Shown: piece after piece, positions 7,840 to 33,759 of the stretch
How positions within the stretch are numbered: position 1 is the first letter of the stretch
Layout of the letters: every line of letters starts with the position of its first letter
From: Candidatus Poribacteria bacterium
Lineage (GTDB): Bacteria > Poribacteria > WGA-4E > WGA-3G
Length of the DNA stretch: 64,000 bases
Direction of reading: 5' to 3'
Assembly (NCBI GenBank): GCA_965197475.1
Contig: CBDANF010000003.1
Span: 3,744,001 to 3,808,000, forward strand
Program-made: the position numbers and the translations under genes
The notes under the pieces: generated by a model
What the model was told of the DNA's origin: nothing
Database searches by the model: none
What the model saw: the letters and a program-made list of their open reading frames with translations, nothing else

Positions 7840-7869
7840 TGCAACATTTTATAACCTAAAGTGCGTCTA
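7840..7869 (+). promoter_or_regulatory. Putative ECF-type promoter TGCAAC-N17-GCGTCTA
   Basis: Matches the general ECF AAC / CGTC consensus and recurs upstream of paralogous ECF genes. Confidence 0.7.
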
Positions 7870-7906
7870 ATTAATCAAGTGAATGTAAAAACTCCGGAGG
7901 ATTCCC

Positions 7907-10876
7907 ATGAAAAAGAAGGATGCTGAGATGATTCAGCGTACATTAGACGGTGACCAATCGGCATTCACCGCTTTAGTAGAAAAATACCAAAAGGGTGTGC
8001 ACGCACTCGCATGGCAGAAAATTGGCGATTTCCATATTGCCCAGGAGATTACACAAGACGCTTTTCTCCGAGCATACCAGAAACTCGGGACATTGAAGAA
8101 CCATAACCTGTTTTCTGGATGGCTCTATGTTATTGCCACACGCTTGTGTTGTGAATGGCTCCGTAAGAAACGTCTACCCATGCAATCCTTAGAAACCGTT
8201 GATAACAATGAGGTGGACCAAGTGGCATATACACAATACATGGAAGAACAGCGAGAGGCAGATGCCGACGAAAATCGGCGTGAACTGGTTAGAGATTTGC
8301 TCAAAAAATTACCAGAGAGTGAACGCACAGTGATGACACTTCACTATCTTGGTGAAATGACGTGTGAATCGATTGGCGAATTCCTTGGTGTATCTTCAAA
8401 TACCATTAGGAGTCGTCTGAGTCGCGCACGTAATAGATTAAAGAAGGAGGAAAATATGATAAAAGAAAACCTTAGCAGTTTCCAACTCCCGACACAAATG
8501 ACAGAAAACATTATGAAGGAAATTTCACGATTTAATCCAGTAGCACCTTCAGGTAGTAAACCGTTGGTACCATTGGCTGTTTCTGCTGTCTCTGCTGTTT
8601 TTGTTTTATTACTGATGGGAATTGGGGCACAAAACCTATACCGCTTTCAGAAACCGTATAGCTTAAACGCACAATCAGAACCGATGATTGAAATATCAGA
8701 AGCACAACTTGTCATTGATTCTCCAGCAAGACCTGCTGTTAGAAATCATGTCGGACATTCGGATATAACAGGTAAGAGCAACGGTGAAGGTCAGAAACCC
8801 GATGATCCGCTATTCGCTGCAGCAAATGCAGATGGAACTGAAGTATCAAAGTCGAAATCACAGTGGGTACAAACAAAAGGACCAGAAGGCGGTGCAGTAT
8901 CCACCCTCTTCAAAACAACGCGTGGGAACATATACGCCGGTGCCGAGCACGGTCTCTACAGACTCACAGATGATGGACAGGCGTGGAAATTTATTAGCAA
9001 AATCAAGGGACCTTCACGCTCTACAAAAGCAACAAGAAGGATGTGGTGGCCCGTCGTAGAACGTCAGGATATTCTCTACCTTGCGACCAATAAAGAGATA
9101 TTAGCTTCTTCAGATAGAGGCGAAAATTGGGAAACACTCTGTAAGTGTCCAGAAGGTCAACTTGTCGGCATGGTGATAACTGATGGGAACCAAGGCTCGC
9201 GAAGCAACATAGTTGTTTATTTAGCTTATACTAACGGAATATATCGCACGGTTGATTTTGGTAAATCATGGATTCCGCTCTCAGGGAGGGTAACAGACAG
9301 GAAAATTCGCGCAATAGCTGCCATTGAAAATACTGTCTTTGCTGGTACCGATAAGGGGCTTTTTCGTTTCAATAATGAAATATGGGAACATTTACCCATC
9401 AGTCAAGAGGATAGATCTGGCAAAACAACTGATTCAATTTTTGCATTAACAACCTCAGACAATAGGTTATACGTCTCAGCAAAGAAGAAGAATGCAGCAA
9501 TAAATCGTAACCAGACACATCAACAAATTGAAATAAAGACATCATCAGGCGACCTTGATCGGATAGAAGTAACTGATAATACGGGCGATTCTCAACTACC
9601 TAATGATTTTGCTATTTATCGTTCAATTGACCTCGGCGAGTCGTGGGATTCTATTACTCCGAAATTAGATGGTGACTTGAAAAAAGATAGTTATACGGTT
9701 GATGTTCCATCTTTATTGACCAACAAGGATGGCATCATAAACCCATTACTATTAAATATAACAGAGATCACTGCATCCGGGAAAAAGGTAATAGTGATGA
9801 CGAGTAAAGCAGAATATTATTCAGGTGATGCAGGTGAAAATTGGACACGCATAGAACATCCTGACAATGTAGCGTATGCTTCAGATACAGCACTGTTGAA
9901 TGGGAACACTTTCTATAGAGGCGGAACACAAGGAATTCAGCGTTCTACTGATGCGGGCAAATCATGGCATCAATTTAATACCGGACTTGTGAATACAAAT
10001 GTCAAACATTTAAATGTTATAAACGGGGTACTCTTTGCTAACACAGAAACAGGGTTTGTCAATTCTACTGATAGAGGTGAATCGTGGACTCCAGTTCTCG
10101 GACATATAGGCCACCTCACACATATTGTAGAATTCGACGATGAACTCTATGTAAGAGCTTATGCAAAAGGAACATCCAGATACTTGCGATTATCTTCTGA
10201 AGACAATAGTCTCAAAAGTATATCTGAAATACCCAGTTTAAAATTTATGAAAGATAACAAGTCGATTGAAATTGTGATAGACGAAAATAGAATTCGCATG
10301 AAACCATCTCTCGGAAGTTTTGCTGTTACAGACACTGCTTACTACGTGAAATATAATGACAAACTTTTCAGATGGAGTATTGGCACTCTGAATTGGTACG
10401 ACATTGGAGTAACGGATATGGATAAATTTGCCGTTTCAGGTGAAACTGTTTACGTTGGTAAGCAGAATGGACATCTGCTGCAATCGTTTGATGAGGGAAA
10501 CACTTGGAACGATATGAGTACTGTCATTGCAAATTTACCGTTTACTGTTGAAAGTTTCAATACAATTACGTTTGCTGGTGAAACTGTCTATGTAGCAACC
10601 GACAAAGGTGTTATTCGTTCAAGTTATGGTACTGATTGGCACATTCTCACCGACGTAGAGGGAACACCTCTCGTCGTAGACAGGTTTGCAGTGGATGGTA
10701 CAACGGTATTCGGTCATGCTGGGCAAAAGGTGTATCAGGTTAAAGAAGATTCGGATACATGGGAGCAGATCAAGCGAGAAATCCCATATCCTGTTAACTG
10801 TTTTGATGTGGATGGGAATATGCTTTATGTTGGAACAAGCGGACGAGGTGTGCTCAGCTTCACGCTTGACGAGTAG
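7907..10876 (+). CDS. Membrane-anchored ECF sigma factor fused to BNR/Asp-box beta-propeller
   Basis: sigma2 (AQEITQDAFL..FSGWLY), sigma4 (LPESER..TIRSRLSRAR), TM LVPLAVSAVSAVFVLLLMGIGA, repeated S-x-D-x-G-x-x-W Asp boxes; GGAGG RBS. Confidence 0.92.
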   Translation: MKKKDAEMIQRTLDGDQSAFTALVEKYQKGVHALAWQKIGDFHIAQEITQDAFLRAYQKLGTLKNHNLFSGWLYVIATRLCCEWLRKKRLPMQSLETVDNNEVDQVAYTQYMEEQREADADENRRELVRDLLKKLPESERTVMTLHYLGEMTCESIGEFLGVSSNTIRSRLSRARNRLKKEENMIKENLSSFQLPTQMTENIMKEISRFNPVAPSGSKPLVPLAVSAVSAVFVLLLMGIGAQNLYRFQKPYSLNAQSEPMIEISEAQLVIDSPARPAVRNHVGHSDITGKSNGEGQKPDDPLFAAANADGTEVSKSKSQWVQTKGPEGGAVSTLFKTTRGNIYAGAEHGLYRLTDDGQAWKFISKIKGPSRSTKATRRMWWPVVERQDILYLATNKEILASSDRGENWETLCKCPEGQLVGMVITDGNQGSRSNIVVYLAYTNGIYRTVDFGKSWIPLSGRVTDRKIRAIAAIENTVFAGTDKGLFRFNNEIWEHLPISQEDRSGKTTDSIFALTTSDNRLYVSAKKKNAAINRNQTHQQIEIKTSSGDLDRIEVTDNTGDSQLPNDFAIYRSIDLGESWDSITPKLDGDLKKDSYTVDVPSLLTNKDGIINPLLLNITEITASGKKVIVMTSKAEYYSGDAGENWTRIEHPDNVAYASDTALLNGNTFYRGGTQGIQRSTDAGKSWHQFNTGLVNTNVKHLNVINGVLFANTETGFVNSTDRGESWTPVLGHIGHLTHIVEFDDELYVRAYAKGTSRYLRLSSEDNSLKSISEIPSLKFMKDNKSIEIVIDENRIRMKPSLGSFAVTDTAYYVKYNDKLFRWSIGTLNWYDIGVTDMDKFAVSGETVYVGKQNGHLLQSFDEGNTWNDMSTVIANLPFTVESFNTITFAGETVYVATDKGVIRSSYGTDWHILTDVEGTPLVVDRFAVDGTTVFGHAGQKVYQVKEDSDTWEQIKREIPYPVNCFDVDGNMLYVGTSGRGVLSFTLDE

Positions 10877-10910
10877 TTTTACCTAATCACCTAACCTTCT
10901 TTATTTGAAA

Positions 10911-11648: not shown

Positions 11649-12563
11649 ATGTTGAATTATTTTCGGTCAATTTCCGCTTTACTGCTTATATTTTGTTTAG
11701 GTGTAACGCTACTCGCTAACGAACAAGCAACCTACTATTTTCCGGATAAACTCGGTAGTTCTTGGGTTTATGTAGATCAAGATGGAAATGAACTCACTCG
11801 GTACGCTATTGAGGAAAAAGATGTTGAAGGTGAGACATTTCGTGCCTTTAGTTATGAACCCGCAATTGAAGATTGGGAAAATTATGATTGGATTATACAT
11901 CCCTTCCTATATCAAGTCAATGAAAATTGGATTTCATTTTATGCCGGTAGTGATATAGAAGATGTGATCAAATCGCGCATGAGTGAAAATATGCAGGAAA
12001 CACAGGAGCAATTACAGGAGCAGTTGAACCAACAAGAGATTGTCGATCAACTCCCACCTGGAGTCACCATTGATTTGGATTATACCGTTGATCCCACAGC
12101 ACAAGATCATTTCTATCTTTTGCTAACACCTGCTACTTTTAATGAAGAATGGATTGCTATGGAATATCAATATAAATTGGATATGTCTCTTAGTATTCAG
12201 GTTGATCTGCACACAACCGAAGATCACCCTATCAATTCATCCTCGGTTAAAGTTGTACAAACCGGAAAAGTTATTGGAACAGAAACCGTTGAAACTGAAG
12301 CAGGAACTTTTAAAGACTGCTTAAAAATTGAGTATCGTACTGTTGAAACTACTACAAGCACAAAACTTCCTGCAGAGCAATCTCAACCTCTTCTTGAACA
12401 AGAAGCCAACGAAGAACAAGAAGTTGACGAATCAATTAAAACATTGTGGCTAGCCCCAAACGTGGGAATCGTCAAATTCAAGAATGAAGATGAGGATATA
12501 GCTCTTGAATTAAAAAGTTATGAAATCAAATCTGATAACTCGGAAAACGAGGAGAACAAATAA
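11649..12563 (+). CDS. Secreted acidic hypothetical protein
   Basis: Signal peptide; ETVETEAGTFKDCLKI...LWLAPNVGIVK, resembling DUF3108-like beta-sheet proteins; GGAGG RBS. Confidence 0.75.
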   Translation: MLNYFRSISALLLIFCLGVTLLANEQATYYFPDKLGSSWVYVDQDGNELTRYAIEEKDVEGETFRAFSYEPAIEDWENYDWIIHPFLYQVNENWISFYAGSDIEDVIKSRMSENMQETQEQLQEQLNQQEIVDQLPPGVTIDLDYTVDPTAQDHFYLLLTPATFNEEWIAMEYQYKLDMSLSIQVDLHTTEDHPINSSSVKVVQTGKVIGTETVETEAGTFKDCLKIEYRTVETTTSTKLPAEQSQPLLEQEANEEQEVDESIKTLWLAPNVGIVKFKNEDEDIALELKSYEIKSDNSENEENK

Positions 12564-12953: not shown

Positions 12954-12981
12954 TGCAACCTTCAAATGCCAAATAGCATCT
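12954..12981 (+). promoter_or_regulatory. Putative ECF-type promoter TGCAAC-N16-GCATCT
   Basis: Same motif and position as upstream of the other ECF fusions. Confidence 0.65.
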
Positions 12982-13018: not shown

Positions 13019-15313
13019 ATGAAACATGATGATGCTGAGTTGATTGAACGCACACTTGAAGGTGATTCCCAAGCCTTTGCTGCACTTGTAGAAAAATACC
13101 AAGAGCAGATACACGCGCTGGCGTGGCAGAAAATTGGTGATTTTCACATCGCGCAAGAGATAACACAAGATGCCTTCATCACAGCGTATCAAAAACTTTC
13201 AACCCTCACACATCACAACCGCTTTGCGGGATGGCTATATGTCATTACCAGTAACAAGTGTAATATGTGGCACCGAAAGAAAAAACCGCAACTTCAATCT
13301 CTGGAGGAAACAGACCCTATGGAGTTAGAAGAGGTGTATTATTCAGATTATGTGTCTCGGCAACGTGAAGAAGCAGCGAATAAAAATCAGCGAGCGATTG
13401 TTCGGAAGTTGCTCAATAAACTCCGAGAAAGTGAACGGACAGTCGTAACGATGCATTACCTTGCAGGCTTAACATGTGAAGAGATTGGTAGGTTTTTGGG
13501 TGTGTCGCCGAACACGGTTAAAAGTCGGCTGCATCGCGCCCGAGAGAGGTTAAAGAAGGAGGAAGCAGTGATTCAAGAAAATCTTAGCAGTTTCCAACTG
13601 CCAGCACAAATGACAGAAAACATCATGAAGGAAATTTCACGTCTTAATCCAATAGCACCTTCAGGAAATAAACCTTTAGTACCGTTAGCAATATCCGCTG
13701 CATCAGCAATAATAGTTTTTTTGCTGATAGGCTTTGGGGCGCAAAATCTAATTCGGTTTCAAAAGCCTTATAGTATAAAGGCAACATCAAAACCAACGAT
13801 TGAAATCGTTGACACACAAATAGTCTTGGAATCCTCTGCCAAACCTTCAATAAACAATCAAGTTGGACGTTCGGATGTTCTCAGTAACAATGATGGAACG
13901 GGACAGGAACCGGATACATCACTATTTACTGGAGCACAGACGGATGATACTGAAAGAACTAATTTCAAAGGTAAATGGAAACAGACGAATGGACCTTACG
14001 GTGGCAAGATAACAACGCTTTATGAAACCACTAATGGCGTGCTCTTCGCGGGGACAGAGAACGCAGGTATTTTTCGCTCCACTGATAATGGAAACAACTG
14101 GACACCAGTTAATACTGGATTAAACAATGAAGGGCGATTTATGGATGTTACTGCATTCGCGGAAAAGGGGAATAAGATCTATGCAGGCAGGTGGGAGGCA
14201 TTATACGTTTCTACTGATATTGGCAACACCTGGCAACCTGTATCTGCTATCCAACGCCCTGGGGAAATCAGTGGTATTGTGATCCTTGATGACCATATCT
14301 ACGTTAGTACACATTTCAAAGGTGTTTGGCAGTCTAAAGATGGTAATTCATGGGCACAAATCAATGACGGACTTGGAACGACGACGTTTCATGGGATGCT
14401 CTTAGAGAATGACCTGCTAACAGTGATGGAGGTTTTTAGACTCTCAAGTCATGGGACAATGCTGGTTGCTACTACAAGAAAAGGACTCTTTCGTAGAACA
14501 GGGAATGAAGACTCGTGGACACTTACCAATCCAGTTGACGTTGAGCATTCAGATGGGGTTGAGTCGGAAAACAATTCGCAAGATAAACCAGGATTAAATT
14601 CTTCACCTAAGCAACATTCTTCATCTGATTTACATGTTGAGTCGTTCGCTTCAATGAAACATTTACTTTTTTTGAGTGGATATATGGGGAAAAAATCTGG
14701 GATCTTCCGGTCAAATGACGTAGGCGACTCATGGACGCTCATCACCCCAGAAAAAGTAAAAGAAGAAAGTGATGACGTTCAGACAATTGCCGTGCAAGGT
14801 GGGAGGCTATACGCTGGCACTTCTGACGGTTTGATCTATCTTTCGGAGGATATGGGTGATTCATGGATATCAATCAATGATGGGGTAATGCATGGTGATG
14901 TATTATCATTGTTACCAATCAATGATAATACTGTCTTCATAGGCACATCTAAAAATGGAGTCTTTCGCACAACAGACGCAGGGGATTCTTGGGTAGAATG
15001 TAACACTGGCATAATAAATACATCTGTCAGAAAATTAGAGGTCATTGGTGATAAACTATACACCGTTGTTGGTAGAAAAATTGTCTATTCTGCCGACGGT
15101 GGAGATACATGGTTGCCTATAAACGATCCTTCAAAGCAGAGCAAATGTGGTGTTCTAACCATTTGTGTATCAGATGGAGAGCTCTACATCGGTGCTTACT
15201 TTGGTGATGATAAATATATTCCATCTCATCTTGGTGGTGAGGGTGATAGTGTTTACAGGTTGAATAGAAAAAATAAAACTTTGGTTGAACTTTTCACAGA
15301 TATGGAATTGTAA
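13019..15313 (+). CDS. Membrane-anchored ECF sigma factor with BNR beta-propeller, probably frameshifted into 15316-15861
   Basis: Start ATG 13019 (GAGG RBS; aligns with paralogues); sigma2/sigma4, TM, many Asp boxes. Confidence 0.88.
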   Translation: MKHDDAELIERTLEGDSQAFAALVEKYQEQIHALAWQKIGDFHIAQEITQDAFITAYQKLSTLTHHNRFAGWLYVITSNKCNMWHRKKKPQLQSLEETDPMELEEVYYSDYVSRQREEAANKNQRAIVRKLLNKLRESERTVVTMHYLAGLTCEEIGRFLGVSPNTVKSRLHRARERLKKEEAVIQENLSSFQLPAQMTENIMKEISRLNPIAPSGNKPLVPLAISAASAIIVFLLIGFGAQNLIRFQKPYSIKATSKPTIEIVDTQIVLESSAKPSINNQVGRSDVLSNNDGTGQEPDTSLFTGAQTDDTERTNFKGKWKQTNGPYGGKITTLYETTNGVLFAGTENAGIFRSTDNGNNWTPVNTGLNNEGRFMDVTAFAEKGNKIYAGRWEALYVSTDIGNTWQPVSAIQRPGEISGIVILDDHIYVSTHFKGVWQSKDGNSWAQINDGLGTTTFHGMLLENDLLTVMEVFRLSSHGTMLVATTRKGLFRRTGNEDSWTLTNPVDVEHSDGVESENNSQDKPGLNSSPKQHSSSDLHVESFASMKHLLFLSGYMGKKSGIFRSNDVGDSWTLITPEKVKEESDDVQTIAVQGGRLYAGTSDGLIYLSEDMGDSWISINDGVMHGDVLSLLPINDNTVFIGTSKNGVFRTTDAGDSWVECNTGIINTSVRKLEVIGDKLYTVVGRKIVYSADGGDTWLPINDPSKQSKCGVLTICVSDGELYIGAYFGDDKYIPSHLGGEGDSVYRLNRKNKTLVELFTDMEL

Positions 15314-15315
15314 GT

Positions 15316-15861
15316 ATGGATGTAGTTGGCAATACATTTTATATGGGCACATGGGACAGTGGAGTCTTCCAGTGGGATCAGAAAACGGGTCTTACCAAAC
15401 TTGGTTTGGTACATCACAACATCTGGCTAATATCTGCAAATAGTGAGAATGTGATTGCGGTTACTGGAGATAGTGAAATCTACCGTTTTAAAGAGAACCG
15501 TTGGGAGCCTATTCACTCAACGGATATGATTGATGGCGGTTTGTCTGATCTCAAATGGGTTGGTTCAACGTTATATGTAACCATTTGGAACAAGGGGGTA
15601 TTTCGTTCCAGGGATGGAGGCGATACTTGGGCACCCATCAACGATGGTCTGGATGAGATATCTGCTACATCAATTGGAACAGATGGTACTGAGGTGTATG
15701 TCAGTACATCTACAGGTATTTTCCAATGGATAGAAGAGAAACAACATTGGAAGTCGATTGGTTCTCTTACACAACAGGTTTCATCTTTAGCAGTAGTTGA
15801 CGGTTTTCTTTACGCTGGTACTGTCAATAGCGGAGTGTATAAAATTCGGATTGAGCAATAA
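15316..15861 (+). CDS. C-terminal beta-propeller fragment of the preceding ECF fusion
   Basis: Asp box RSRDGGDTW and C-terminal LYAGTVNSGVY like the paralogue ends; upstream in-frame YGIVS continues the blade pattern. Confidence 0.7.
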   Translation: MDVVGNTFYMGTWDSGVFQWDQKTGLTKLGLVHHNIWLISANSENVIAVTGDSEIYRFKENRWEPIHSTDMIDGGLSDLKWVGSTLYVTIWNKGVFRSRDGGDTWAPINDGLDEISATSIGTDGTEVYVSTSTGIFQWIEEKQHWKSIGSLTQQVSSLAVVDGFLYAGTVNSGVYKIRIEQ

Positions 15862-16034: not shown

Positions 16035-16181
16035 TACCAGTAAATTATAATGCGCGCCTATTAGTAGGTTTTATAACACTCCTATTAGTAGGGTGCTTTT
16101 TTATAATTCTCCACAAATCCCTTCTCACATTTGAAAAAAATTATCGTTCTTCCCTCCAAATTTGCATTTTTTTCCAAAATA

Positions 16182-16210
16182 TGCAATTCTATACCACAAA
16201 ATCGCGTCTA
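16182..16210 (+). promoter_or_regulatory. Putative ECF-type promoter TGCAAT-N16-GCGTCTA
   Basis: Conserved motif about 40 nt upstream of the ECF start. Confidence 0.7.
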
Positions 16211-16247: not shown

Positions 16248-19223
16248 ATGACATACGATGATTCTGATCTGATTCAACAAACATTAGAAGGTGATCAGCA
16301 AGCGTTTGCTGCACTTGTGGAAAAATACCAAAAACAGATACACGCGTTGGCGTGGCAGAAAATTGGTGATTTCCACATTGCGCAAGAGATTACGCAGGAT
16401 GCGTTCTTTACAGCATTCCAAAAACTTTCGACGCTCACAGACCATAATCGTTTTGCGGGGTGGCTATACGTGATTGCAAACCGCAAATGTATTGCGTGGC
16501 ACAGAAAGAAATCACCACAACCACAATCGTTAGAAGCGACAGACACAGTTGAATTAGAGGAGGTGTACTATTCAGAATATATGACCCAACAACGCGAAGA
16601 AGCAGCAAATCAAAAAAGACGTGCAATAGTCCAGAAATTGCTAAGTAAGCTACAAGAAAGCGAGCGAACAGTAGTCAATCTGTATTACATCGCAGAGATG
16701 ACATGTGAAGACATCGGCAAGTTTTTGGGTGTATCTCCGAACACGGTTCGCAGTAGACTTCACCGTGCAAGGAATAAAATGAAAAAGGATGAAACAATGA
16801 TTAAAGAAAACCTTAGCAGTTTCCAACTGCCGACACAATTAACGGAAAATATTATGAAAGAGATTTCACGCCTCAATCCAATAGTACCTTCTGGAAGCAA
16901 ACCTCTGGTGCCGTTAGCCATATCTGCTGCCTCAGCCATTTTAGTTGTCCTATTGATGGGAATTGGTGCGCAACATCTATATCGTTTTCAGAAACCGTAT
17001 CGTTTTGATGCGCAATCAGAACCGACAATTGAAATAACAGAAACGCAACTTGTCATTGACACGCCAGCAAAACCTGCTGTTCGGACCGCAATTGGTCGTT
17101 CAAATGTTTCAGGTAAGAACAACGGTACGGGACAGAAATCAGATGCCTCTCTGTTCGCTGCAGCACAAGCTCAAGAGTCAGAGATTCTAAAGTCCAAACA
17201 GAAATGGATTCAGGCAAAGGGACTGGAAGGGGGTGCAGTCACTTATCTCTTTGCAACAACTCGCGGTGACATGTACGCAGGCACACTCAGTGGTCTCTAT
17301 AGGCTTACAGATGATGGAAGTGCGTGGAAACTCATCAACACCCGTAATATACTTTCACCCAGCGCAGAAATTGAGGGAGAGGGTTGGGGACAAATGGTAG
17401 AGAGTGGTGATACCCTCTACTTTGCCACGAAAACAGAAGTGTTAGCGTCTACAGATAGAGGTGAAAAATGGAGGACGCTCGGCAAGCATCCGGGAGGTGT
17501 GCCTATTGGCATGGTAATAACGGATCACACATTTTATCTCGGTCACCGTGAAGGGGTATTCCGTTCCAAGGATGGTGGCACATCATGGATGCCGTGGACA
17601 CATTTAATCAATGAGCAAACAGGCAACAAAATTCGCGCAATTGCCGCTATTAAAAGTACTCTCTTTGCAGGAACCGATAAAGGTCTTTATCGTCTCAATG
17701 ACGATATCTGGGAAAAAATATCCATCGGCCAGGGGAATGCACAGGAAAAAGAAATTGGCATTCATGATTTGGCAGTTGTAGGAAATCAACTCTTTGTTGT
17801 AGTCTTACCGATAAAACTAAGAGGGACCTATGCAGTTAAGTTGCCCTTAGGAGATAAAAAATCAGTTAGTAATTTCGGTTGGAAGCTTTATCATTCAATT
17901 GATAGCGGTGATTCATGGAATTTGATTGCACACAAAGACAAAATTATCAATATGAGAAAGTCTTATTTTCCATTACAAGTATTAGGACCCAGGATGCACC
18001 AATTTCCGTTTACAGGGATGGGACCCAACTTGAATGTAAAGATAGCCGCAGTAAAAGGTAGAATCGTAGTAATAGATAGCGATTACCAGTCCTACTCAAT
18101 TGATGGAGAAGGAAATTGGGTATTAGATGATACTTCAAATAACGGCAGTATACACAACATAACTCCAGTCCCTGTGATGTTAAACCCAAATACCATATAT
18201 ACTTCCAACGCATACGGCATTTATCGTAGTACGGATGGTGGCAAGTCATGGCAACAATTTAATTCAGGGTTAACAGGAACCTCCATCTTGACTTTAGTTG
18301 CTGTTAATGATGCCCTTTATGCGATTACACCTGAAGGACTTGTCACCTCAACTGATGGAGGTGAATTGTGGACAAATGTTTTCCTCGTAGGGGGAGATTT
18401 TACTATGAGTCTGAAGATTTTCCACGAGTCAGTCTATGTAAGAACTGATAGAATGTTAGCGCAAGCAAGTACCATTGTCAAAAATGTGCAAGTTCCCGAG
18501 ATGAAAATAGGGGATATGAAAATTAATCGTTTATCAACAAAAAACGGTAAGAAAACCTTCATTCGTGAAACCCCCACTTTTGAACAAAGTAACCTACCTG
18601 CTATTGGAACGGTACCCGGAAACTTTGCCGTTAGTGGTACAACCTATTATGCAGAATACACCAAAAAACTCTTCAGATGGAAACCTGGTGCTACTGAATG
18701 GTACGACACAGGATTAATAGATAAAGGTGAACCGCCTCCTTTTGACGAATTCGCTGACATCCTTGATTATACCGGTTTCAAACTTGCTGTTTCGGGTGAG
18801 ACGGTTTACGTCGGCAAAAGAGATGGACACCTCATGCAATCTTTTGATGAAGGAGATACTTGGAACGATGTCACAGCAAATTTACCACTTTCTGTTGACC
18901 ATTTTAACTCAATAGCCTTCGTGGGACAAACTATCTATGTGGCAACCGACAAAGGTGTCGTGTCGTCAAGAAACGGCACTGATTGGCATATTATAACTGA
19001 TGGAAAAGAAAAACACCTTGTCGTTGATAGATTTGCAGTAGATGGCACAACGGTATATGGTCAAGTTGGGCAAAAAGTATACCAATTAAAAAAGAATTCA
19101 GACGTATGGGAACAGATTACACCAGAAATTCCATACCCTGTTTCTTGTTTTGATGTTGATCGGAAGACACTCTATGTTGGAACGTTCGGTAGTGGTGTGC
19201 TTCGTTTCATGCTTGATGAATAA
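16248..19223 (+). CDS. Membrane-anchored ECF sigma factor fused to BNR/Asp-box beta-propeller
   Basis: Start ATG 16248 (GAGG RBS); close paralogue of 7907-10876 in sigma, linker, TM and terminal blades. Confidence 0.92.
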   Translation: MTYDDSDLIQQTLEGDQQAFAALVEKYQKQIHALAWQKIGDFHIAQEITQDAFFTAFQKLSTLTDHNRFAGWLYVIANRKCIAWHRKKSPQPQSLEATDTVELEEVYYSEYMTQQREEAANQKRRAIVQKLLSKLQESERTVVNLYYIAEMTCEDIGKFLGVSPNTVRSRLHRARNKMKKDETMIKENLSSFQLPTQLTENIMKEISRLNPIVPSGSKPLVPLAISAASAILVVLLMGIGAQHLYRFQKPYRFDAQSEPTIEITETQLVIDTPAKPAVRTAIGRSNVSGKNNGTGQKSDASLFAAAQAQESEILKSKQKWIQAKGLEGGAVTYLFATTRGDMYAGTLSGLYRLTDDGSAWKLINTRNILSPSAEIEGEGWGQMVESGDTLYFATKTEVLASTDRGEKWRTLGKHPGGVPIGMVITDHTFYLGHREGVFRSKDGGTSWMPWTHLINEQTGNKIRAIAAIKSTLFAGTDKGLYRLNDDIWEKISIGQGNAQEKEIGIHDLAVVGNQLFVVVLPIKLRGTYAVKLPLGDKKSVSNFGWKLYHSIDSGDSWNLIAHKDKIINMRKSYFPLQVLGPRMHQFPFTGMGPNLNVKIAAVKGRIVVIDSDYQSYSIDGEGNWVLDDTSNNGSIHNITPVPVMLNPNTIYTSNAYGIYRSTDGGKSWQQFNSGLTGTSILTLVAVNDALYAITPEGLVTSTDGGELWTNVFLVGGDFTMSLKIFHESVYVRTDRMLAQASTIVKNVQVPEMKIGDMKINRLSTKNGKKTFIRETPTFEQSNLPAIGTVPGNFAVSGTTYYAEYTKKLFRWKPGATEWYDTGLIDKGEPPPFDEFADILDYTGFKLAVSGETVYVGKRDGHLMQSFDEGDTWNDVTANLPLSVDHFNSIAFVGQTIYVATDKGVVSSRNGTDWHIITDGKEKHLVVDRFAVDGTTVYGQVGQKVYQLKKNSDVWEQITPEIPYPVSCFDVDRKTLYVGTFGSGVLRFMLDE

Positions 19224-24760: not shown

Positions 24761-25021
24761 CTGATATTTCTCATAATTATTCCGAACCTAATAACCACCA
24801 CCCTAAAGCACGTGGACAGACATAAAAATGCGTATTCGTCATGATGATTTTGCCTGTTTTTTTCGTAGGTAAACCCATTTAATTGACAATTTCACTCTGT
24901 TTTGTGTTGAAAATAAAGTGATTTTCTCGGACAATAGGTGCATATCAATTAGCATTTTCATTATCTCATATTGAGAAAGCGTTGATAGATATTGACTTCT
25001 GAGCGTTTTGAGAAATATCAG
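24761..25021. mobile_element. 261-bp MITE derived from the IS at 21126-22479
   Basis: Perfect 13-bp TIR ctgatatttctca/tgagaaatatcag, flanking CTT on both sides, subterminal similarity to both IS ends. Confidence 0.8.
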
Positions 25022-25116
25022 CTTAGTTATTGTTCTTTTGACGTGTGCTGTTTGTAGTCGCGCAATTCACGTGCCTCTTATTTTTATTTTCAAATTGTTT
25101 TTACGGAGTGTTTAAT

Positions 25117-26652: not shown

Positions 26653-26670
26653 AACGCAAGGAGATATTTT

Positions 26671-28761
26671 ATGGAAAACAAAAAGTCAGTAGTTCCCGTT
26701 CCAGTAGGGAACTACGGAGATGACGTAACTACATGGGCACTCCCCGAAGGTGCAGTTGCTCGATTAGGGCGCGGCTGGGTGCCTGATATTGCGTTTTCCT
26801 CAGATGAACGTTATCTTGCTGTCGGAACTTGGGTAGGACTATGGTTGTATGACTTGGAAATGCTATCTCCTGTCGCATTATGGGAAACGAAACGGGGTAT
26901 GGTTGGATGTGTTACCTTTTCACCTAACGGAAAATGGATTGCTGTCAGCAATTCAGATCGAATTTTAAAAGTATTGGATATCCGGAATAGTGCATGCTTA
27001 ACACAAGTAGAGTCGGATGATTATATTACAGGACTAACTTTTTCACCTGATAGTCAATATCTTGCAGCTGCCTATGCAAGTTCTCATACCGTTGAAATCT
27101 GGCATGCAAAAACTGGCGAACTGTTTGCTAAATTCACTGCAAACGTTAAGAAAGCTCGTTTTACCCGTCCTATCTGTTTTTCACCTGATACGCAACTGAT
27201 AGCATCTACGTGCATCATTGACACGGATCACAATGCAGATGCAATAGTAGTCTGGGATATGGAAAGTGGTCAACAAATTGCATCTCTCATTGCACACACC
27301 AAAGAGATAACTAAGATCTGCTTTTCACCGTGTGGACAGTTTCTCGCCTCTGGCGGTGAAGATGGCGCAGTGTACGTCTGGAATGTTAACACTTGGCAAC
27401 AGGTGCAGGCATACACAGATTTTGGTGACGTATATCGCATCATTCCTTCCTATTCACCGGAGGGAATCCTCCGTGCTGCGATTATGGCTTATGAGGATAC
27501 CGCTCCTTCCACTATCTCTGTTTGTAACTTGGAAAGCGGAGAACAACTTTATACTGATCAAATATTAGGAAATACCGAAGACTATTCCTATTTCAATCAT
27601 TGGGGTAAAACCATAGTCTTTTCGAACGGTTCGCAGCTTGCTTATGAATGCAGACACGATTTCATCAACGTGTGGACACTTGCTAACTCTAACACGCGCC
27701 AGCTTACCCATTCGCCTATCTCTTATCCTACATCGGTAGTGTTTTCGGATGATGGAAACACCTTAGCCGCTGAACATTATCACGAGGGTGTAGTGTTATG
27801 GGATGTTGCAAGCAGGCGTTCACGTCCTGCAGTTAAAGTGGAATCTGCTGAGAAAAATCAGTTTGTATATAAATCTGAGAGCGAAAAACTCCATGTCGCT
27901 AGCATCAAAGATGACACTGTTACACTTTGGGAGGCTGATCGCGATAGAACTCCGCTTATTGAAGGAACAGGACGCAAATATTGGAGTGCATTTCCTGCAT
28001 TATCACCAACAGGAACACTTTTCGCTTATGCTGACGCAGATGGCAACCTAAAAGTGTGGGATGTGCAAAGTGGGGAGAAACTTCATGAATTAACACATCC
28101 GCTTTATCAAGACGATGAAGATGATGAAGATGATGAAGATAACGAAGATAAAATTAGTGAGTTAGCGTTCAGTCCCGATGGAAGTCTTCTCACAAGTGAG
28201 TCGCGTTTCACACCTATTCGGCTGTGGGATATGGAACATGGTGAAGAAATAATCGCATTTCCGGGTGATAGCCTTGGAGGAATCATAGGATTTTCTCCCT
28301 GTGGCAAGTATCTCGCTTGTCTTGGAGAATATGTCCAATTGTGGGACATCACCCATGGCGAAATGTTCATAACGTCTATAACACAAGATCAGGTGACAGA
28401 CGAGTTCGCGTTTTCGCCGTGTGGGCGGTACTTGGCTGCAGGTATGAACGAAATTATGCTGTGGGACATCACGCGCTGTGAACTCCACATGCATCTCTCG
28501 CTGCCAAAGGAATGTCAGAAAATGTTTCCATTAGCATTTTCGCAGTGTGGGGACTATTTTGCCGCAGGCGCATGGTGGCAACCCGGTATGGAGAAGATGC
28601 CGATCTGTTTGTGGGAAGTAGAAACGGGTAAACATCTTGTCACCTTTTGGGGACATGGCACAGACATGCAGGCACTGGCATTTTCACCTGATAATAAACT
28701 CTTAGCGAGTGCAAGTTATGATGGCTCCATACTCCTATGGGATTTGATGCCTTATCTGTAA
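26671..28761 (+). CDS. WD40-repeat protein
   Basis: LPEGAVARLGRG N-cap, WD40 repeats (FSPCG variants), acidic DDE tract. Confidence 0.9.
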   Translation: MENKKSVVPVPVGNYGDDVTTWALPEGAVARLGRGWVPDIAFSSDERYLAVGTWVGLWLYDLEMLSPVALWETKRGMVGCVTFSPNGKWIAVSNSDRILKVLDIRNSACLTQVESDDYITGLTFSPDSQYLAAAYASSHTVEIWHAKTGELFAKFTANVKKARFTRPICFSPDTQLIASTCIIDTDHNADAIVVWDMESGQQIASLIAHTKEITKICFSPCGQFLASGGEDGAVYVWNVNTWQQVQAYTDFGDVYRIIPSYSPEGILRAAIMAYEDTAPSTISVCNLESGEQLYTDQILGNTEDYSYFNHWGKTIVFSNGSQLAYECRHDFINVWTLANSNTRQLTHSPISYPTSVVFSDDGNTLAAEHYHEGVVLWDVASRRSRPAVKVESAEKNQFVYKSESEKLHVASIKDDTVTLWEADRDRTPLIEGTGRKYWSAFPALSPTGTLFAYADADGNLKVWDVQSGEKLHELTHPLYQDDEDDEDDEDNEDKISELAFSPDGSLLTSESRFTPIRLWDMEHGEEIIAFPGDSLGGIIGFSPCGKYLACLGEYVQLWDITHGEMFITSITQDQVTDEFAFSPCGRYLAAGMNEIMLWDITRCELHMHLSLPKECQKMFPLAFSQCGDYFAAGAWWQPGMEKMPICLWEVETGKHLVTFWGHGTDMQALAFSPDNKLLASASYDGSILLWDLMPYL

Positions 28762-28822
28762 CGTGCTTCACATTGTCTTTGTTTCTAAATATCTACTGAG
28801 AATAACACTAAGGAATTTAGTC

Positions 28823-30934
28823 ATGCAAAAAACGATTCAAATTCAGGATATGTCAGATAGGGATGCTTTCACCACCTGGAGATTACCACAGGGTGCAATT
28901 GCGCGCTTCGGACAAGGGCAGGTCATTGATTTAGCTGTTTCACCGGATGGGAGGTGTCTCGCTGTTGGAAGTTGGGCAGGCGTGTGGTGGTATGACCTCA
29001 CCACACGCACCCCTATTACGCTGTTTGAAACGGATCGGGGTATGATTGACTGTATTGCCCTATGCTCCGCAACTGAAAAACCGTGGTTAGCCATCTTAAA
29101 TTCTGATAGTAATGGTAATCAGGTGGTCAAAGTGTGGAATGTGCAAACAGGGGATTTGGGGGCTGTTATGGACATGCCTCCGCAGCCTATTAGAGATTTA
29201 CTCTGTTTTTCTCCATCGGGACAATGGCTTGCTGCGATTTGTGGAAGTATTGCAGAACTAAATGCCGAGTGTGCTGTTTATATCTGGCATGCGGCAACTG
29301 GTGCCCTGGACACAGAACTAAAGGACGTTCCTGAAGAAATTGGATTGCCTAACGATGAAAATGAACAATTTTACAATTCACCAGGTGCTTTGACATTTTC
29401 ACACGACAATCGCTTTCTTGCATGGTGTATCACTCCCTATGCGCTTGCAAGTGCGGGGTTCGCCGATTTCATTTCCGTATGGGATATAACAACCTGTGAA
29501 CGCATCACTCGCCTCATGGGACATCCCGAAGGTGTGCAATCTCTCAGTTTTTCACCTTGTGGACAGTTCCTTGCCGCTGGAGGGGTAAAGGGGACTGTTC
29601 AAATATGGGATACTTCCACTTGGCAGCTGCATCAGACATATCCATCGTTCGGTGATCATCTGATGAATGTTTCCTATACCCCCGATGGCATCCTGCGTGC
29701 AGCGGGCATCTCTCATGATGAGACCACAATTGCTATATGGGACGTGGGACAGCGTGAAAAACGTTACGTTTTTGAGAATTGGGAGATTGAAAGTTCTCGC
29801 TTTTCCCACGGAATGCATCTCGCTTTGAAAAGCGATTTTGAAGTGAAAGTAAAGACGGTGAGGGATACTGATGCTTTATCTATACTGCCATGGGAACTCG
29901 GTTATCCACATTCTATGGTATTTTCACTTGATGGAAAAACACTCTGTACAGGGTACCGTAATTTTGGAGGTATTGTGCTATGGGACGTAGCAAGTCATTG
30001 CCACCAGCATGTAGACGTTGAACCGCGCTGTGAGACCTATGCCGTTTTTGTAACCTACATAGGAAAACTCTGTGTCGCCGGTTTCCCACCGGAACCTTCT
30101 GATGAGTCCTTCTGGGGAGATGTGCTTTTTTTGTGGGAGCTTGGACAAAGTGAACCGATAGCCAAACTGACGGTTCCTGAGCCTGATCGGTTCGCGATGG
30201 CATATTCACCCACCACAAATCTCCTTGCCTGTGGGAATGGAACCGATATTGATGACTGGCATGAAAATGACCCTGAAAACGGTGCCGTCTATGTATGGGA
30301 TGTCGCAAGCGGACAGATGCAACACATACTCAGAGGTAAACATACGGATGGTATCAATTTTGTGAAGTTCAGTCCAGATGGCACACGCCTTATCAGCAGA
30401 GATACTGACAGCACAGTTCGGTTGTGGGACGTGATGTGCGGTGAAGAAATCGGTGAATTCCCAGAAAATTTTTTGATGCATGGTCCTTTTGACGAGGAAT
30501 ACATAGACACGTTAGAAGAACGGTTTGAAGAGTTAACCGCTTTTGTACCCCAGGTGTTTTCTCCATGTGGAAATCTAATTGCTGGTAAGTTTAGCGATGA
30601 TAGAATACTTGTGTGGGATATTGAGCAGTGTGAAGCACGCGTGGCAATACACATACCTCTTGTAGTGTCAAATACTGAAACTAGTATCCCCTCTGTAGAT
30701 CCGATAGAGTTTTCTCCTTGCGGACAGTATTTGGCTTATGGTGAAGTTTGGGAACCAGGTGTAGAGAAAGTTCCTGTTCGGTTATGGGATATTCGCACCG
30801 GTGAAAATATCGTCACTTTTCTGGGACATCCAACAGATATTCAATGTCTTGCGTTTTCACCGGATAGCACTATCTTGGCAAGTGGTGGTTTTGATGGCAC
30901 CATCCTCCTTTGGGATCTAACGCCATATCTGTAA
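28823..30934 (+). CDS. WD40-repeat protein
   Basis: AAGGA RBS then ATG 28823; LPQGAIARFGQG N-cap; paralogue of 26671-28761. Confidence 0.88.
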   Translation: MQKTIQIQDMSDRDAFTTWRLPQGAIARFGQGQVIDLAVSPDGRCLAVGSWAGVWWYDLTTRTPITLFETDRGMIDCIALCSATEKPWLAILNSDSNGNQVVKVWNVQTGDLGAVMDMPPQPIRDLLCFSPSGQWLAAICGSIAELNAECAVYIWHAATGALDTELKDVPEEIGLPNDENEQFYNSPGALTFSHDNRFLAWCITPYALASAGFADFISVWDITTCERITRLMGHPEGVQSLSFSPCGQFLAAGGVKGTVQIWDTSTWQLHQTYPSFGDHLMNVSYTPDGILRAAGISHDETTIAIWDVGQREKRYVFENWEIESSRFSHGMHLALKSDFEVKVKTVRDTDALSILPWELGYPHSMVFSLDGKTLCTGYRNFGGIVLWDVASHCHQHVDVEPRCETYAVFVTYIGKLCVAGFPPEPSDESFWGDVLFLWELGQSEPIAKLTVPEPDRFAMAYSPTTNLLACGNGTDIDDWHENDPENGAVYVWDVASGQMQHILRGKHTDGINFVKFSPDGTRLISRDTDSTVRLWDVMCGEEIGEFPENFLMHGPFDEEYIDTLEERFEELTAFVPQVFSPCGNLIAGKFSDDRILVWDIEQCEARVAIHIPLVVSNTETSIPSVDPIEFSPCGQYLAYGEVWEPGVEKVPVRLWDIRTGENIVTFLGHPTDIQCLAFSPDSTILASGGFDGTILLWDLTPYL

Positions 30935-30957: not shown

Positions 30958-30986
30958 TGCAACCTTTCCACCTAATAATCGCGTCA
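30958..30986 (+). promoter_or_regulatory. Putative ECF-type promoter TGCAAC-N17-GCGTCA
   Basis: Same motif about 40 nt upstream of the true ATG at 31027. Confidence 0.65.
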
Positions 30987-31026
30987 CCAAGAATTGTAAG
31001 TCTAAATTGATTATAGGAGTTCTCAA

Positions 31027-33759
31027 ATGGAAAGAGACGATGTTGAACTGATTCAAAGTATATTATCAGGTGACCAAGCTGCTTTCAGTATTTTGGTAAA
31101 AAATACCAAAAAAGTGTTCACGCGCTTGCATGGCGGAAAATTGGCGATTTCCATATCGCTGAAGAAATTACACAAGACACCTTCCTCCATGTGTACAAGA
31201 AACTGACCACACTGAAGAACCCAAAGCAGTTTGCGGGATGGTTGTATGTAATCGCTGATCGACGTTGCATCGCGTGGCTACGAAAGAAGAAACTGGATAT
31301 GCAATTGATGGAAGCCATCAGTGAAGAAACATTGGAGAAGACTGCTTATGCCAGTTATGTAACAAAACAGCGTGAAAAAGCAGCAGTTGAACATCAACGT
31401 AAAATTGTTCAAAGACTTCTGGAAAAACTACCGGAGAGCGAACGTACGGTGATGGTCCTCCACTATCTCGGAGAAATGACCTGCAAGGAGATAAGCAAGT
31501 TTTTAGGTGTGTCCCCGAACACGGTTAAAAGCCGACTTCAACGTGCTCGCAAACGATTAAGAAATGAAGAATCTATAATTCGAGAAACCCTTGGCGGGAT
31601 CCGACTCCCTGCCAACCTAACTGAGAACATCAGGCAGCAGATTGACAAAGTGAAACAGATGTCCCCATCGGGAGCGAAACCGTTTTCACCTCTTGCAGCT
31701 TTAGGCATATCTGCTATTTTGGTAATTTTGCTAATGGGAGCGAGCAATCAAATCATCACTAATTTTCAGCAACCGTATAGTGTTGACGCAGAATCAGAAA
31801 CTACAATTGAAATTGTTGACGCGCCTCTTGTTCTTGATATACAATCAAAACCCGATTTACAAAATCGGGTTGGGCGTGATGCTATTGTTGATAAAAACAG
31901 CGACAAAGGTCTAACAAAAGGAACAAAAAAAGTGGAAAATAACTTGGCACAAGATCCTATGCAATGGCACTTACCTGAAGATGCTAAAGCCCGTTTCGGT
32001 AAAGGAAGGATAAATGAAATACAGTATTCTCCCGATGGAAAGTTTCTTGCTGTTGCAAGTGGAATTGGTATTTGGCTTTATGATGTAACAGTATATCAAG
32101 AAGCTAGTCTTCTCACTGGACATAAGGGAACAGTTGACTGCCTTGCATTTAGTCCGGATGGACGCATCCTCGCGAGTGGAAGTAGCGACTACGGCACCAT
32201 CATCCTGTTGGATAGAAATACGGGGACGCAAAAAACGCTTACCGGACATACATATTTGATCTCAAACGTGGCATTCAGTCCAGATGGAAAAACACTCGCA
32301 AGTGATAGTCGGGACGGCACTATCTGTTTATGGGACACAATCACTGGAGAACAGATGTATACACTCACGAAAGATTCTGAACGCCTAACTATGTTATCAT
32401 TCACGCCAGATGGACAGACAATTGTGGGTGTAAGTTGGGACGACAAAATCAGTCTGTGGAATTCAATCACGGGTAAACACAAGAAGACCTTTGCTTTGCA
32501 TCCCGATTGTTCTGTTACGGGCGCGGCGTTTAATCCGGATGTGAAAACAGTCGCGATTGGCAGTGACAATGGCACAATCTACCTCCACGACTTGGATACA
32601 GGCAAACTCAAGATGACACTCACCGAACATAAGGAACGTATTGACAACTTAGCGTTTAGTCCTGATGGAAATACACTCGCTACTGCGTCATTCAGAGATG
32701 AAACTATCCGTCTATGGGATGCCAACACAGGCAAACACAGACTAACACTCACTGGACCACAGGCGCAATATGCACACACCCGGTATGTTCGAGGCTTCGT
32801 GTTTAACCCTGATGGAAAAACCCTTGCAAGTGGAAGTGGTGATGGCACTATCCGTTTTTGGGATACCCGCACTGGTGCCGAAAAACACAGATTCACTGGA
32901 CATTCAGAATCTGCCTTGAGTGTTGCGTTCAACAAGGATGGCAACATCATTGCAAGTGGGTCTACCGATGATCTTGTTCGCTTGTGGAATGCGGGACACA
33001 GGACAACACATCAAAACGATCAATCGGTCTAAGGATATCACTCACTGGACACGCAGCATGCTGTTCAGTCCAGATGGAAAAATTCTTGTTTGCGGAACTG
33101 ACGAAGGTATAGGTATATGGAATTTACACACAGGTGAAAACAAGAATAAATTCTATGTGGATAGTCCCTGTACCCCCGCACTTAGTCCCGATGGGAATAC
33201 ATTTGCAAGTGGGGTTGACGAGAAAACTATATCCTTATGGGATGTACACACAGGCAAACACAAGAAAACTCTTACCGGAGATTTAGATCAGATGAGTTGC
33301 TTAGTATTCAGCCTGGATGGTAGAATTCTTGCGGGTGGGAGTTTGGACGGCACCATCCGCCTTTGGGATATTGACACTGGCAAAAACAAGACACTTAGAG
33401 GACATGTAGATTGGGTGAATGCTTTAACGTTCACCCCAGACGGAAAAACCCTTGCGAGTGGGAGTGACGACACTACCATCCGCTTTTGGGATGTTGACAC
33501 AGGCAAGAACAAGATGATGCTCAGAGGATCGGATTGGCATCACAGTTATGCGTTAGCTTTTAGTCCAGATGGAAAAACCCTTGTGAGTGGAGATAGAAGT
33601 AAGAACATCTGTCTCTTTGATGCACACACCGGTGAGCAGAAGAATACACTTACAGGTCATACTGATCAGGTCAGCAGTCTCGCGTTCAGTCCTGATGGCA
33701 ACATCCTCGTTAGCAGTAGTCATGATGGCTCTGTGCTTCTCTGGGAAATAGATCCCTAA
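31027..33759 (+). pseudogene. Membrane-anchored ECF sigma factor fused to WD40 propellers, with two frameshifts
   Basis: ATG 31027 (AGGAG RBS) MERDDVELIQSILSGDQAAFSILV; 1 nt missing at the A-run 31098-31103; extra G near 32993-32995 (WNA/DTGQHIKT); ORF-track pieces 31191-33032 and 32920-33759. Confidence 0.85.

Follow-up and report, generated by a model that had tools for sequence, protein, structure and literature searches.

A poribacterial family of putatively membrane-anchored ECF sigma factors with variable ectodomains

Four genes of a Candidatus Poribacteria bacterium, beginning at positions 7907, 13019, 16248 and 31027 of a stretch of 64,000 nucleotides (assembly GCA_965197475.1, contig CBDANF010000003.1, positions 3,744,001 to 3,808,000 of the forward strand; the window hereafter), lie on the same strand and, by open reading frame (ORF) listing and translation, encode a common module of about 290 residues (genes 1 to 4 in this order, Table 1). 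The module consists of the sigma2 and sigma4 domains of an extracytoplasmic function (ECF) sigma factor, a cytoplasmic linker of about 40 residues, one transmembrane helix and an outer juxtamembrane stub of about 45 residues. An initial annotation of this DNA, based on its letters alone, had reported four genes sharing a block of about 300 residues, and the block is present where it was placed: over the first 300 residues or so, the other three proteins are 62, 67 and 46% identical to the product of gene 1, with a mean column identity of 69%, and the motifs that had been quoted (ENLSSFQLP..., SG.KP and FQ.PY...SE..IEI) are invariant or almost so across the four window genes.

The sigma part is readily recognised. 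Pfam places Sigma70_r2 at residues 23-89 and Sigma70_r4_2 at residues 126-178 in the proteins of genes 1, 2 and 3, in each case above the cut-offs, and the ECF sigma model TIGR02937 gives 92-99 bits against a cut-off of 42.9. The sigma2 domain of gene 4 spans a frame break and becomes visible by translation and alignment; ORF 31191 of the same gene shows Sigma70_r4_2 (E 1e-18). By both fold and sequence, the closest solved relative of the sigma domains is SigW of Bacillus subtilis (E 4e-24), followed by AlgU and sigmaE, and the best NCBIfam sub-family match is likewise to SigW (PRK09641, 102-114 bits, under its cut-off of 209). With sigma2 and sigma4 only, both matching curated ECF models, the sigma part is an ECF (group 4) sigma-70 factor.

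Each of the four proteins has one strong hydrophobic segment, at about residues 220-239 (Kyte-Doolittle 2.25-2.53 over 19 residues), consistent with the single transmembrane passage that had been reported; above the threshold of 1.5, the scan shows just one further peak, which is weak (1.57) and belongs to the propeller of gene 3. To view the module across the family, 265 database proteins and 130 ORFs from related loci and the window were pooled, of which 348 of 395 have the full module and 317 are non-identical. Across these 317 sequences, the mean frequency of the top residue is 0.75-0.78 in the sigma domains, 0.72 in the linker, 0.67 in the transmembrane segment and 0.66 in the outer stub, and drops to 0.50 in the low-complexity spacer that joins the stub to the ectodomain. 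The transmembrane helix is rich in small residues. In an alignment of 89 sequences, P219, P222, G238, Q248, P250 and S257 are invariant and S226, A227, S229 and A230 are each at least 90% conserved; conservation of the transmembrane segment at specific residues thus indicates that it is more than a greasy anchor. A cysteine in sigma2 (C81) is found in 306 of the 317 sequences and one in sigma4 (C153) in 220, being absent in 97. An AlphaFold2 model of the module has sigma2 and sigma4 at predicted local distance difference test (pLDDT) scores of 80-90, a short helix at residues 197-207 and a low-confidence transmembrane helix at residues 224-244. As had been noted before, no separate anti-sigma gene adjoins the array: the neighbouring ORFs 11649, 19240 and 20319 have no match to an anti-sigma family of Pfam or NCBIfam, and each carries its hydrophobic segment at the extreme N-terminus.

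Table 1. Positions of the four sigma-ectodomain genes, their parts and the preceding promoter-like motifs, numbered from the first nucleotide of the window
Feature	Position (nt)	Strand	Basis
Gene 1 promoter-like motif, ECF-type, TGCAAC-N18-CGTCT	7840..7868	+	strict-pattern match
Gene 1, intact, 989 aa	7907..10876	+	ORF, Pfam, alignment, hydropathy
Gene 1 constant module, aa 1-285	7907-8761	+	
Gene 1 transmembrane segment, aa 220-242	8564-8632	+	
Gene 1 Asp-box double-propeller ectodomain	from ~8861	+	
Gene 2 promoter-like motif, ECF-type, TGCAAC-N17-CATCT	12954..12981	+	strict-pattern match
Gene 2 first part, 764 aa: constant module, transmembrane segment, most of Asp-box propeller	13019..15313	+	
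Gene 2 transmembrane segment	13676-13744	+	
Gene 2 second part, 181 aa, different frame	15316..15861	+	
Gene 3 promoter-like motif, ECF-type, TGCAAT-N17-CGTCT	16182..16209	+	strict-pattern match
Gene 3, intact, 991 aa: constant module, transmembrane segment, predicted GH74-like double-propeller ectodomain	16248..19223	+	
Gene 3 transmembrane segment	16905-16973	+	
Gene 3 predicted GH74-like ectodomain	from 17202	+	AlphaFold2, fold search, PDB profile search
Gene 4 variant promoter-like motif, TGCAAC-N18-CGTCA	30958..30986	+	direct reading; outside strict pattern
Gene 4: sigma, transmembrane segment, WD40 (~14 repeats), spread over three frames	31027..33759	+	
Gene 4 transmembrane segment	~31683-31739	+	

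Behind the module, Pfam finds Sortilin-Vps10, BNR and DUF6242 matches in three of the window genes and WD40 repeats (E 5e-65) in gene 4, in agreement with the initial annotation, which had described Asp-box/BNR propellers in three genes and a WD40 propeller in one behind sigma2 and sigma4. This architecture of a constant and a variable half extends well beyond the window. An all-against-all BLAST of the C-terminal parts of the 299 proteins with at least 200 residues after residue 318 separates 17 unrelated ectodomain classes behind one type of module. The largest are the Asp-box (234 proteins) and WD40 (33) classes, followed by a GHL15 glycosidase-like class (8), CarboxypepD_reg with a C-type lectin (7), an unnamed class (5) and 12 singletons. 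Of the singletons, seven match a curated Pfam family (LamG/pentaxin-like, transglutaminase core, redoxin/AhpC-TSA, trypsin-like with TPR, Kelch, Reg_prop and CarboxypepD_reg). For another two, M16-like and Big_5, the match lacks an accepted stretch or lies close to the cut-off, and the last three match nothing in Pfam.

The Asp-box ectodomains resemble GH74 hydrolases in fold. The AlphaFold2 model of the gene 3 ectodomain is all-beta (pLDDT 78, predicted template-modelling score 0.77) and matches GH74 xyloglucanases, which have a tandem seven-blade, clam-like fold, with template-modelling scores of 0.62-0.65 (E 2e-21) at an identity of just 13-16%. A profile of 69 ectodomains also matches GH74 in a PDB profile search (E 3e-25), the alignments being out of register between the repeated blades, and the NCBIfam model "F510_1955 family glycosylhydrolase" gives sub-threshold matches. 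On these models, the Asp-box ectodomain is a GH74-like tandem seven-bladed Asp-box propeller, for which a host or environmental glycan would be a plausible ligand. Double propellers are also used by the hybrid two-component glycan sensors of Bacteroides, to which the structural match is weak (template-modelling score about 0.33). The WD40 part of gene 4 is 50-60% identical to fused WD40 ectodomains in a related locus (L020). Nearby stand-alone WD40 ORFs were considered as donors of this part and rejected, as they are only 24-36% identical to it.

The module and the ectodomain differ in their histories. A maximum-likelihood tree of module residues 1-245 was built from 101 rows, comprising all 66 non-Asp-box rows (including the partial module of gene 4) and 35 Asp-box rows, made up of gene 1 and a random draw of 34 from the remaining 233; that pool contained genes 2 and 3 under their database identifiers, with no forced inclusion. 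This tree needs 24 changes of ectodomain class, where the minimum is 16 and the mean of shuffled assignments is 54.7, with none of 200 shuffles as low. Class and module are therefore correlated. Nevertheless, its well-supported branches force at least 11 changes between WD40 and non-WD40 and at least 5 that involve Asp-box; they also force 3 each for the lectin and unnamed classes and 2 for GHL15. When all 300 rows are placed on a FastTree, 34 changes are required. Within the Asp-box class (70 of its 234 proteins sampled), median identity is 0.66 in the module and 0.38 in the ectodomain, the ectodomain is the less conserved part in 2389 of 2415 pairs, with almost no correlation between module and ectodomain identity (Spearman 0.19). 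Among the 299 proteins, 253 of the 720 pairs with modules at least 88% identical are mosaics, with ectodomains that are less than 45% identical or align over less than half their length; in two examples the module is 97 or 95% identical and the ectodomain 44 or 27%, respectively. The incongruence between sigma and propeller trees that the initial annotation had proposed as a test is thus found, in the forced WD40 changes as well as in these mosaic pairs.

The pattern is also seen at the DNA level. Four syntenic arrays are 85-94% identical in their upstream regions and modules, and their ectodomain-coding parts are often unalignable. Gene 2 and its counterpart in locus L003 diverge evenly along their length; since orthologues diverge in this way, the mosaics point to replacement of the ectodomain cassette or gene conversion of the module, not to a difference in rate alone. 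All of the 10 supported sister pairs whose ectodomains differ show identity of 50-96% up to about residues 270-300 and of no more than 30% beyond about 300-330, which places the junction in the extracellular spacer after the conserved stub. The shuffling of sensors that had been suggested earlier is supported, whereas its placement in the cytoplasmic linker does not, as the breakpoints at about residues 270-330 lie outside the membrane. Judged from these sequences, ectodomains have apparently been replaced repeatedly through recombination in the spacer.

On present sampling, the family is restricted to Poribacteria. With the first 300 residues of gene 3 as query, 5299 proteins match at E<=1e-5 among 8000 candidates scored, and the best 120 have 71-100% module identity, the source names given being all Candidatus Poribacteria. 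A divergent member (P0229) retrieves 6156 at E<=1e-20, again among 8000 scored and again with only Poribacteria among the source names, together with a further member (P0475). In a set of species-representative genomes, at least 572 of 602 stretches among the matches listed encode relatives. Of the 61 related loci kept, with the single-cell genome WGA-3G among them, 60 bear Poribacteria in their titles and the remaining one is called "uncultured bacterium". Searched alone against 1.84 billion proteins, the linker, transmembrane segment and stub (residues 182-300) match 240 representatives at 50% clustering, 192 of them at E<=1e-10, and the matches nearly always sit at target residues 182-300, directly behind a sigma domain. 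Literature searches, which did not extend to subscription journals, found no description of a poribacterial family of this kind, and "Poribacteria" does not occur in the main text or the available portion of the supplement of PMC7826278, a result that is not conclusive.

Family genes typically stand in arrays. A hidden Markov model of the module, run over all locus ORFs, finds 2-5 family ORFs in 38 of the 61 loci, some of which overlap on the same contig and so are not 61 independent observations; the ORFs of an array are all on one strand, and the median gap between family stop-to-stop ORFs is about 620 nt. In most related arrays the family genes adjoin directly, unlike genes 1 and 2 of the window, between which lies a DUF3108-like protein with an N-terminal hydrophobic segment (11649-12563, + strand).

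Two of the four window genes are broken, a feature that is absent from the initial annotation. Gene 1 is intact; compared with its orthologue in locus L001, it shows 99% identity over the module and 96.6% over the ectodomain. In gene 2, the break at about 15285-15316 is a net deletion of 10 nt relative to an intact orthologue of 974 residues in L003, with DNA identity of 91.5% on both sides of the junction; L003 also carries an upstream segment identical to that of gene 2. This deletion looks genuine. Gene 4 has two frame breaks of 1 nt each, one within a run of A near 31097-31103 and the other within a run of G near 32988-32992, which could be assembly errors in a long-read chromosome. Among 111 evaluable copies in related genomes, leaving out 12 cut by locus ends, 102 are intact; the other 9 comprise 5 short copies and 4 broken ORF pieces that stem from 3 genes. 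With 102 copies intact elsewhere, it appears that the family as a whole is maintained and that the window is an unusually decayed sample of it; two broken copies out of four suggest that the repertoire also turns over.

Relatives without a fused ectodomain were also sought, and 475 of 909 candidates match at E<=1e-10. Most of the short ones inspected leave the reading frame towards their end, as would be expected of broken copies or assembly shifts. A consistent exception is a class of 232 residues from other Poribacteria (P0292-P0294, P0300-P0302, P0304, P0306, P0311, P0312 and P0327), which has the family sigma domain (58-62% identity) and a conserved tail of about 50 residues that keeps L.SF.L, with no transmembrane segment and no ectodomain; it may represent a soluble paralogue with the same promoter specificity. 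Conversely, locus L043 contains a family copy that lacks the whole sigma domain (8609-10906). Its ORF opens at module position 182, about 216 nt from the preceding family gene, and its first start codon is an internal Met of the linker helix, which leaves two readings, a pseudogene deleted at its 5' end or a sensor without a sigma domain. P0222, P0261, P0147 and others begin at "MIRE/MIKE..." and are candidates for stand-alone anti-sigma-like genes.

Each family gene of the window is preceded by a promoter-like motif. The pattern TGCAAYN{17,18}CRTCT has 3 matches in the window against 0.37 expected, all of them upstream of genes 1-3 and some 67 nt from the ATG. Related loci totalling 1.1 Mb hold 68 strict matches, of which 53 lie 40-120 nt upstream of family genes, and the other 15 are mostly inside a conserved ectodomain coding motif, with one upstream of a broken copy. 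Among 119 distinct upstream regions, the strict motif is found in 51 within -110 to -20 and in 71 anywhere in 250 nt, the looser TGCAAY-N17/18-YRTY in 94 (shuffled mean 0.3) and TGCAAY alone in 99 (shuffled mean 4.8), although these counts are inflated by orthology between loci, which tells against giving them full weight. The spacer varies between types of paralogue while both promoter elements persist. A scan for sigma-70-type promoters finds 33 against 33.4 expected. With its AAC-rich -35 and CGT-containing -10 elements, the motif reads as an ECF-type promoter; ECF30 promoters have the elements TGCAACA and CGTC, and ECF266 has the same -35 element (PMC7826278). As each gene carries its own motif of this type upstream, the family genes are probably autoregulated, and since the motif and the DNA-binding regions are common to the paralogues, cross-activation between them is possible. 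About 90 nt upstream of the gene 3 motif lie two exact copies of CCTATTAGTAGG, 24 nt apart (16057-16092, + strand). These are the 2 matches in the window, against 0.12 expected, and the pair could be an operator or a terminator remnant.

Several ECF groups described in PMC5411451, PMC7826278 and PMC8999054 share features with this family. The initial annotation had named the planctomycete group ECF57 as an example of membrane-anchored fusions. Both combine an ECF sigma factor with a membrane-spanning C-terminal extension, and ECF57 proteins occur in several copies per genome, have WD40-like repeats in a minority and cysteines in sigma2 and sigma4, and have been proposed to be released from the membrane (PMC7826278). 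However, ECF57 is 100% planctomycete, with about 2 transmembrane helices and non-conserved promoters (PMC7826278), whereas the present family, compared here with the description of ECF57, is poribacterial and has one transmembrane helix and conserved promoters. ECF57 also has a fully conserved cysteine pair (PMC7826278), to which C81 (306 of 317 sequences) and C153 (220 of 317) are candidate counterparts. In the actinobacterial groups ECF48, ECF52 and ECF53 (for instance SCO4117), the sigma factor is likewise fused to a transmembrane segment and a sensor on the outer side, a role taken in ECF52 by a carbohydrate-binding domain. Proteolytic activation has been proposed for these groups, but they have a zinc-finger (ZAS) anti-sigma domain and 1-2 transmembrane helices (PMC8999054).

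The nearest parallel in layout is IutY of Pseudomonas putida (assigned to ECF243 in PMC8999054), in which one polypeptide likewise holds a cytoplasmic ECF sigma domain, one membrane passage and an outer regulatory domain. After trimming by Prc, about 50 outer residues of IutY are left, similar in length to the constant stub of about 45 residues seen here (PMC5411451). IutY, which has been described as unique, differs in having a FecR-type anti-sigma domain and in working with a TonB-dependent outer-membrane receptor, whereas the poribacterial proteins have no Pfam match to FecR or another anti-sigma family, a large and putatively ligand-binding ectodomain and many paralogues. Among two-gene systems, ECF30 (SigV/RsiV) shares the promoter elements TGCAACA and CGTC, and its RsiV is a receptor-type anti-sigma factor that is cut after ligand binding; the +1 gene of ECF266 encodes a beta-propeller protein with one transmembrane segment, and that of ECF128s2 carries BNR, sortilin or YCF48 domains (PMC7826278). 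These systems are from Firmicutes and Actinobacteria, with anti-sigma factors that carry DUF4179, DUF3298 or an N-terminal domain of their own; in Poribacteria, sigma factor and sensor are fused, and the linker matches none of their anti-sigma families. The family, which spans the phylum, is an unusually modular kind of fused sigma/anti-sigma factor, set apart from ECF57, ECF48/52/53, IutY, ECF266 and ECF128s2 by the defining features compared.

We consider it probable that these proteins form a single-pass, membrane-anchored ECF family in which each protein acts as a one-component transmembrane unit that would release its sigma domain by proteolysis. The nearest solved sigma factors, SigW, AlgU and sigmaE, are textbook cases of control by proteolysis. 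Release, which the initial annotation had also put forward, is proposed because these relatives are controlled in this way and because IutY and RsiV/SigV also work by it. Prc shortens IutY until about 50 periplasmic residues remain, after which RseP cleaves it (PMC5411451), and lysozyme binding by RsiV is followed by cleavage by signal peptidase and RasP (PMC7826278). By analogy, the tethered sigma factor would be inactive; binding of a ligand to the ectodomain would expose the constant outer stub to a site-1 protease, a site-2 intramembrane protease would next cut the constant transmembrane segment, and the freed sigma domain would join RNA polymerase and drive TGCAAY...CGTCT promoters. A stub and transmembrane segment that stay constant across 17 sensor classes are as expected if common proteases process all paralogues.

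A number of observations weigh against this reading. Positive charges flank the transmembrane segment equally (2 versus 2-3), and the positive-inside rule consequently gives no N-in orientation; the N-in, C-out topology is proposed instead because the sigma domain must be cytoplasmic and the kinds of ectodomain are mostly extracytoplasmic. The majority of the Pfam-named classes are typically so, which is stronger support for this topology than the charge balance and agrees with the C-out orientation assumed from the outset. Extracytoplasmic WD40 would be unusual, since stand-alone WD40 proteins without a signal peptide also occur here. Half of the window copies are broken, so this array may be partly non-functional, and no S2P, Prc or DegS-like gene lies within the window. 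AlphaFold2 gives the transmembrane segment and stub pLDDT below 55, with nothing ordered beyond the transmembrane helix. The linker, transmembrane segment and stub have no match to any Pfam anti-sigma family, including DUF4179, zf-HC2, RskA and FecR, and a linker of about 40 residues is too short for a class I anti-sigma domain. A Pfam scan of residues 182-300 of the four proteins at E<=10 returns nothing except one chance-level cadherin match; there is no zf-HC2 match in the proteins and no Cys/His motif in the linker consensus, and a search of the ESM Atlas for look-alikes of residues 183-300 reaches a top score of 0.80, the level of chance.

That the linker shows no detectable anti-sigma domain would suit a sigma factor that is active while still tethered, in the manner of ToxR, CadC and TcpP, with the full-length protein engaging RNA polymerase and nearby promoters of its own at the membrane once ligand binding to the ectodomain, or its oligomerisation, switches it on. 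The conserved small-xxx-small pattern of the transmembrane segment (S226/A227...S229/A230) could then mediate dimerisation, and the only promoter targets found within about 10 kb, the family genes themselves, could be near the membrane during co-translational insertion. Other ECF groups, moreover, tolerate C-terminal extensions in the holoenzyme (PMC8999054). Activity without release nonetheless seems unlikely to us: the conserved outer stub of about 45 residues is hard to account for in this way, the closest solved relatives SigW, AlgU and sigmaE are controlled by proteolysis, and no membrane-tethered sigma factor is known to act so. The sole fused sigma/anti-sigma factor that has been studied requires proteolysis (PMC5411451). 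Alternatively, the linker helix at residues 197-207 might fold onto sigma2 and sigma4 as a minimal anti-sigma element, from which a ligand signal passed through the transmembrane segment would free the sigma factor, with or without later proteolysis. The linker is conserved like the sigma domains (0.72 versus 0.75-0.78) and has a predicted helix, and the cysteines of sigma2 (306 of 317) and sigma4 (220 of 317) recall the pair in ECF57. Yet a single helix of 11 residues is much shorter than known anti-sigma domains, conformational signalling through one transmembrane segment usually needs dimers, and the sigma4 cysteine is missing from 97 of the 317 sequences; auto-inhibition of this kind is accordingly an improbable account. 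A complex prediction for the sigma domain (residues 1-182) and the linker (residues 183-222), run without controls, scored 0.02 and is evidence neither way.

The proteins could also be anchored enzymes or binders, in which the sigma domain is a relic or a means of co-regulation and there is no receptor repertoire. Several ectodomain classes are indeed enzyme families (GH74-like, GHL15, trypsin-like, redoxin), the Asp-box type is homologous to GH74 hydrolases, and a glycosylhydrolase model (F510_1955) matches below its threshold. We regard this as very unlikely. No other part of the protein is as conserved as the sigma module (median 0.66 versus 0.38; 2389 of 2415 pairs), which also retains a matching promoter, non-enzymatic classes such as WD40, Kelch, lectin, LamG and TPR are fused to it as well, and identity to GH74 is only 13-16%.

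Returning to release by proteolysis, a broader and more tentative picture can be drawn, which we offer as a possibility rather than an expectation. The family may amount to a combinatorial surface-receptor system, in which a constant cassette of sigma factor, linker, transmembrane segment and protease-recognition stub, together with a shared promoter type, is combined with propellers, lectins and enzyme-like folds that are swapped by recombination. If one promoter type is indeed common to all paralogues, activation of any one receptor would turn on the entire set, which might then work as an OR gate with many inputs and cross-feedback, tuned to glycans of the sponge host and of food and subject to birth and death of copies.

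Fused sigma/anti-sigma factors are the least understood route of ECF signalling, of which IutY alone has been dissected experimentally. Hundreds of proteins in which the signalling half is constant and the sensor half varies over at least 17 folds form a near-ideal natural series for asking what the stub and transmembrane segment do, whether site-1 cleavage is gated by ligand binding and how an existing output comes to be connected to new sensors. The family points to a major, undescribed sensory system in an uncultivated phylum of sponge symbionts known for glycan degradation, and might provide a ready scaffold for synthetic one-protein transmembrane sensors acting on orthogonal ECF promoters.

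The surroundings of the array contain further genes of note. A fifth ECF sigma factor, which the initial annotation does not mention, is encoded at 34884-36518 (+ strand; TIGR02937, 89 bits). Its C-terminal extension of about 350 residues has no hydrophobic segment and gives a weak, sub-threshold CBM9-like match (E 2e-4); it is a different, probably soluble, kind of extended ECF that adjoins the array. Between genes 3 and 4, the stretch 22571-30934 (+ strand), with 21525-22442, holds clustered stand-alone WD40 proteins that lack signal peptides (25045, 26671 and 28763), just after an ORF for a DDE transposase. A degraded duplicate of 25045 is split there between ORFs 22571 (82% identity) and 23384 (63%). 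The stand-alone proteins and the ectodomain of gene 4 have a common N-terminal motif, W.LPE.A.ARFG.G.

At the edge of the window, a UvrA-like ORF of at least 1777 residues (3-5333, - strand) runs off it and is about twice the usual length of UvrA, with several ABC ATPase regions and a UvrA interaction domain that is matched in two stretches. Beyond the fifth ECF gene, the region 41028-54209 (- strand) encodes two sulfatases (41028 and 52836), three proteins with VIT, VWA and YfbK_C domains (43291, 45609 and 50778) and a HEAT-repeat protein (48092), a content of glycan-processing and eukaryote-like repeat proteins that is typical of Poribacteria.

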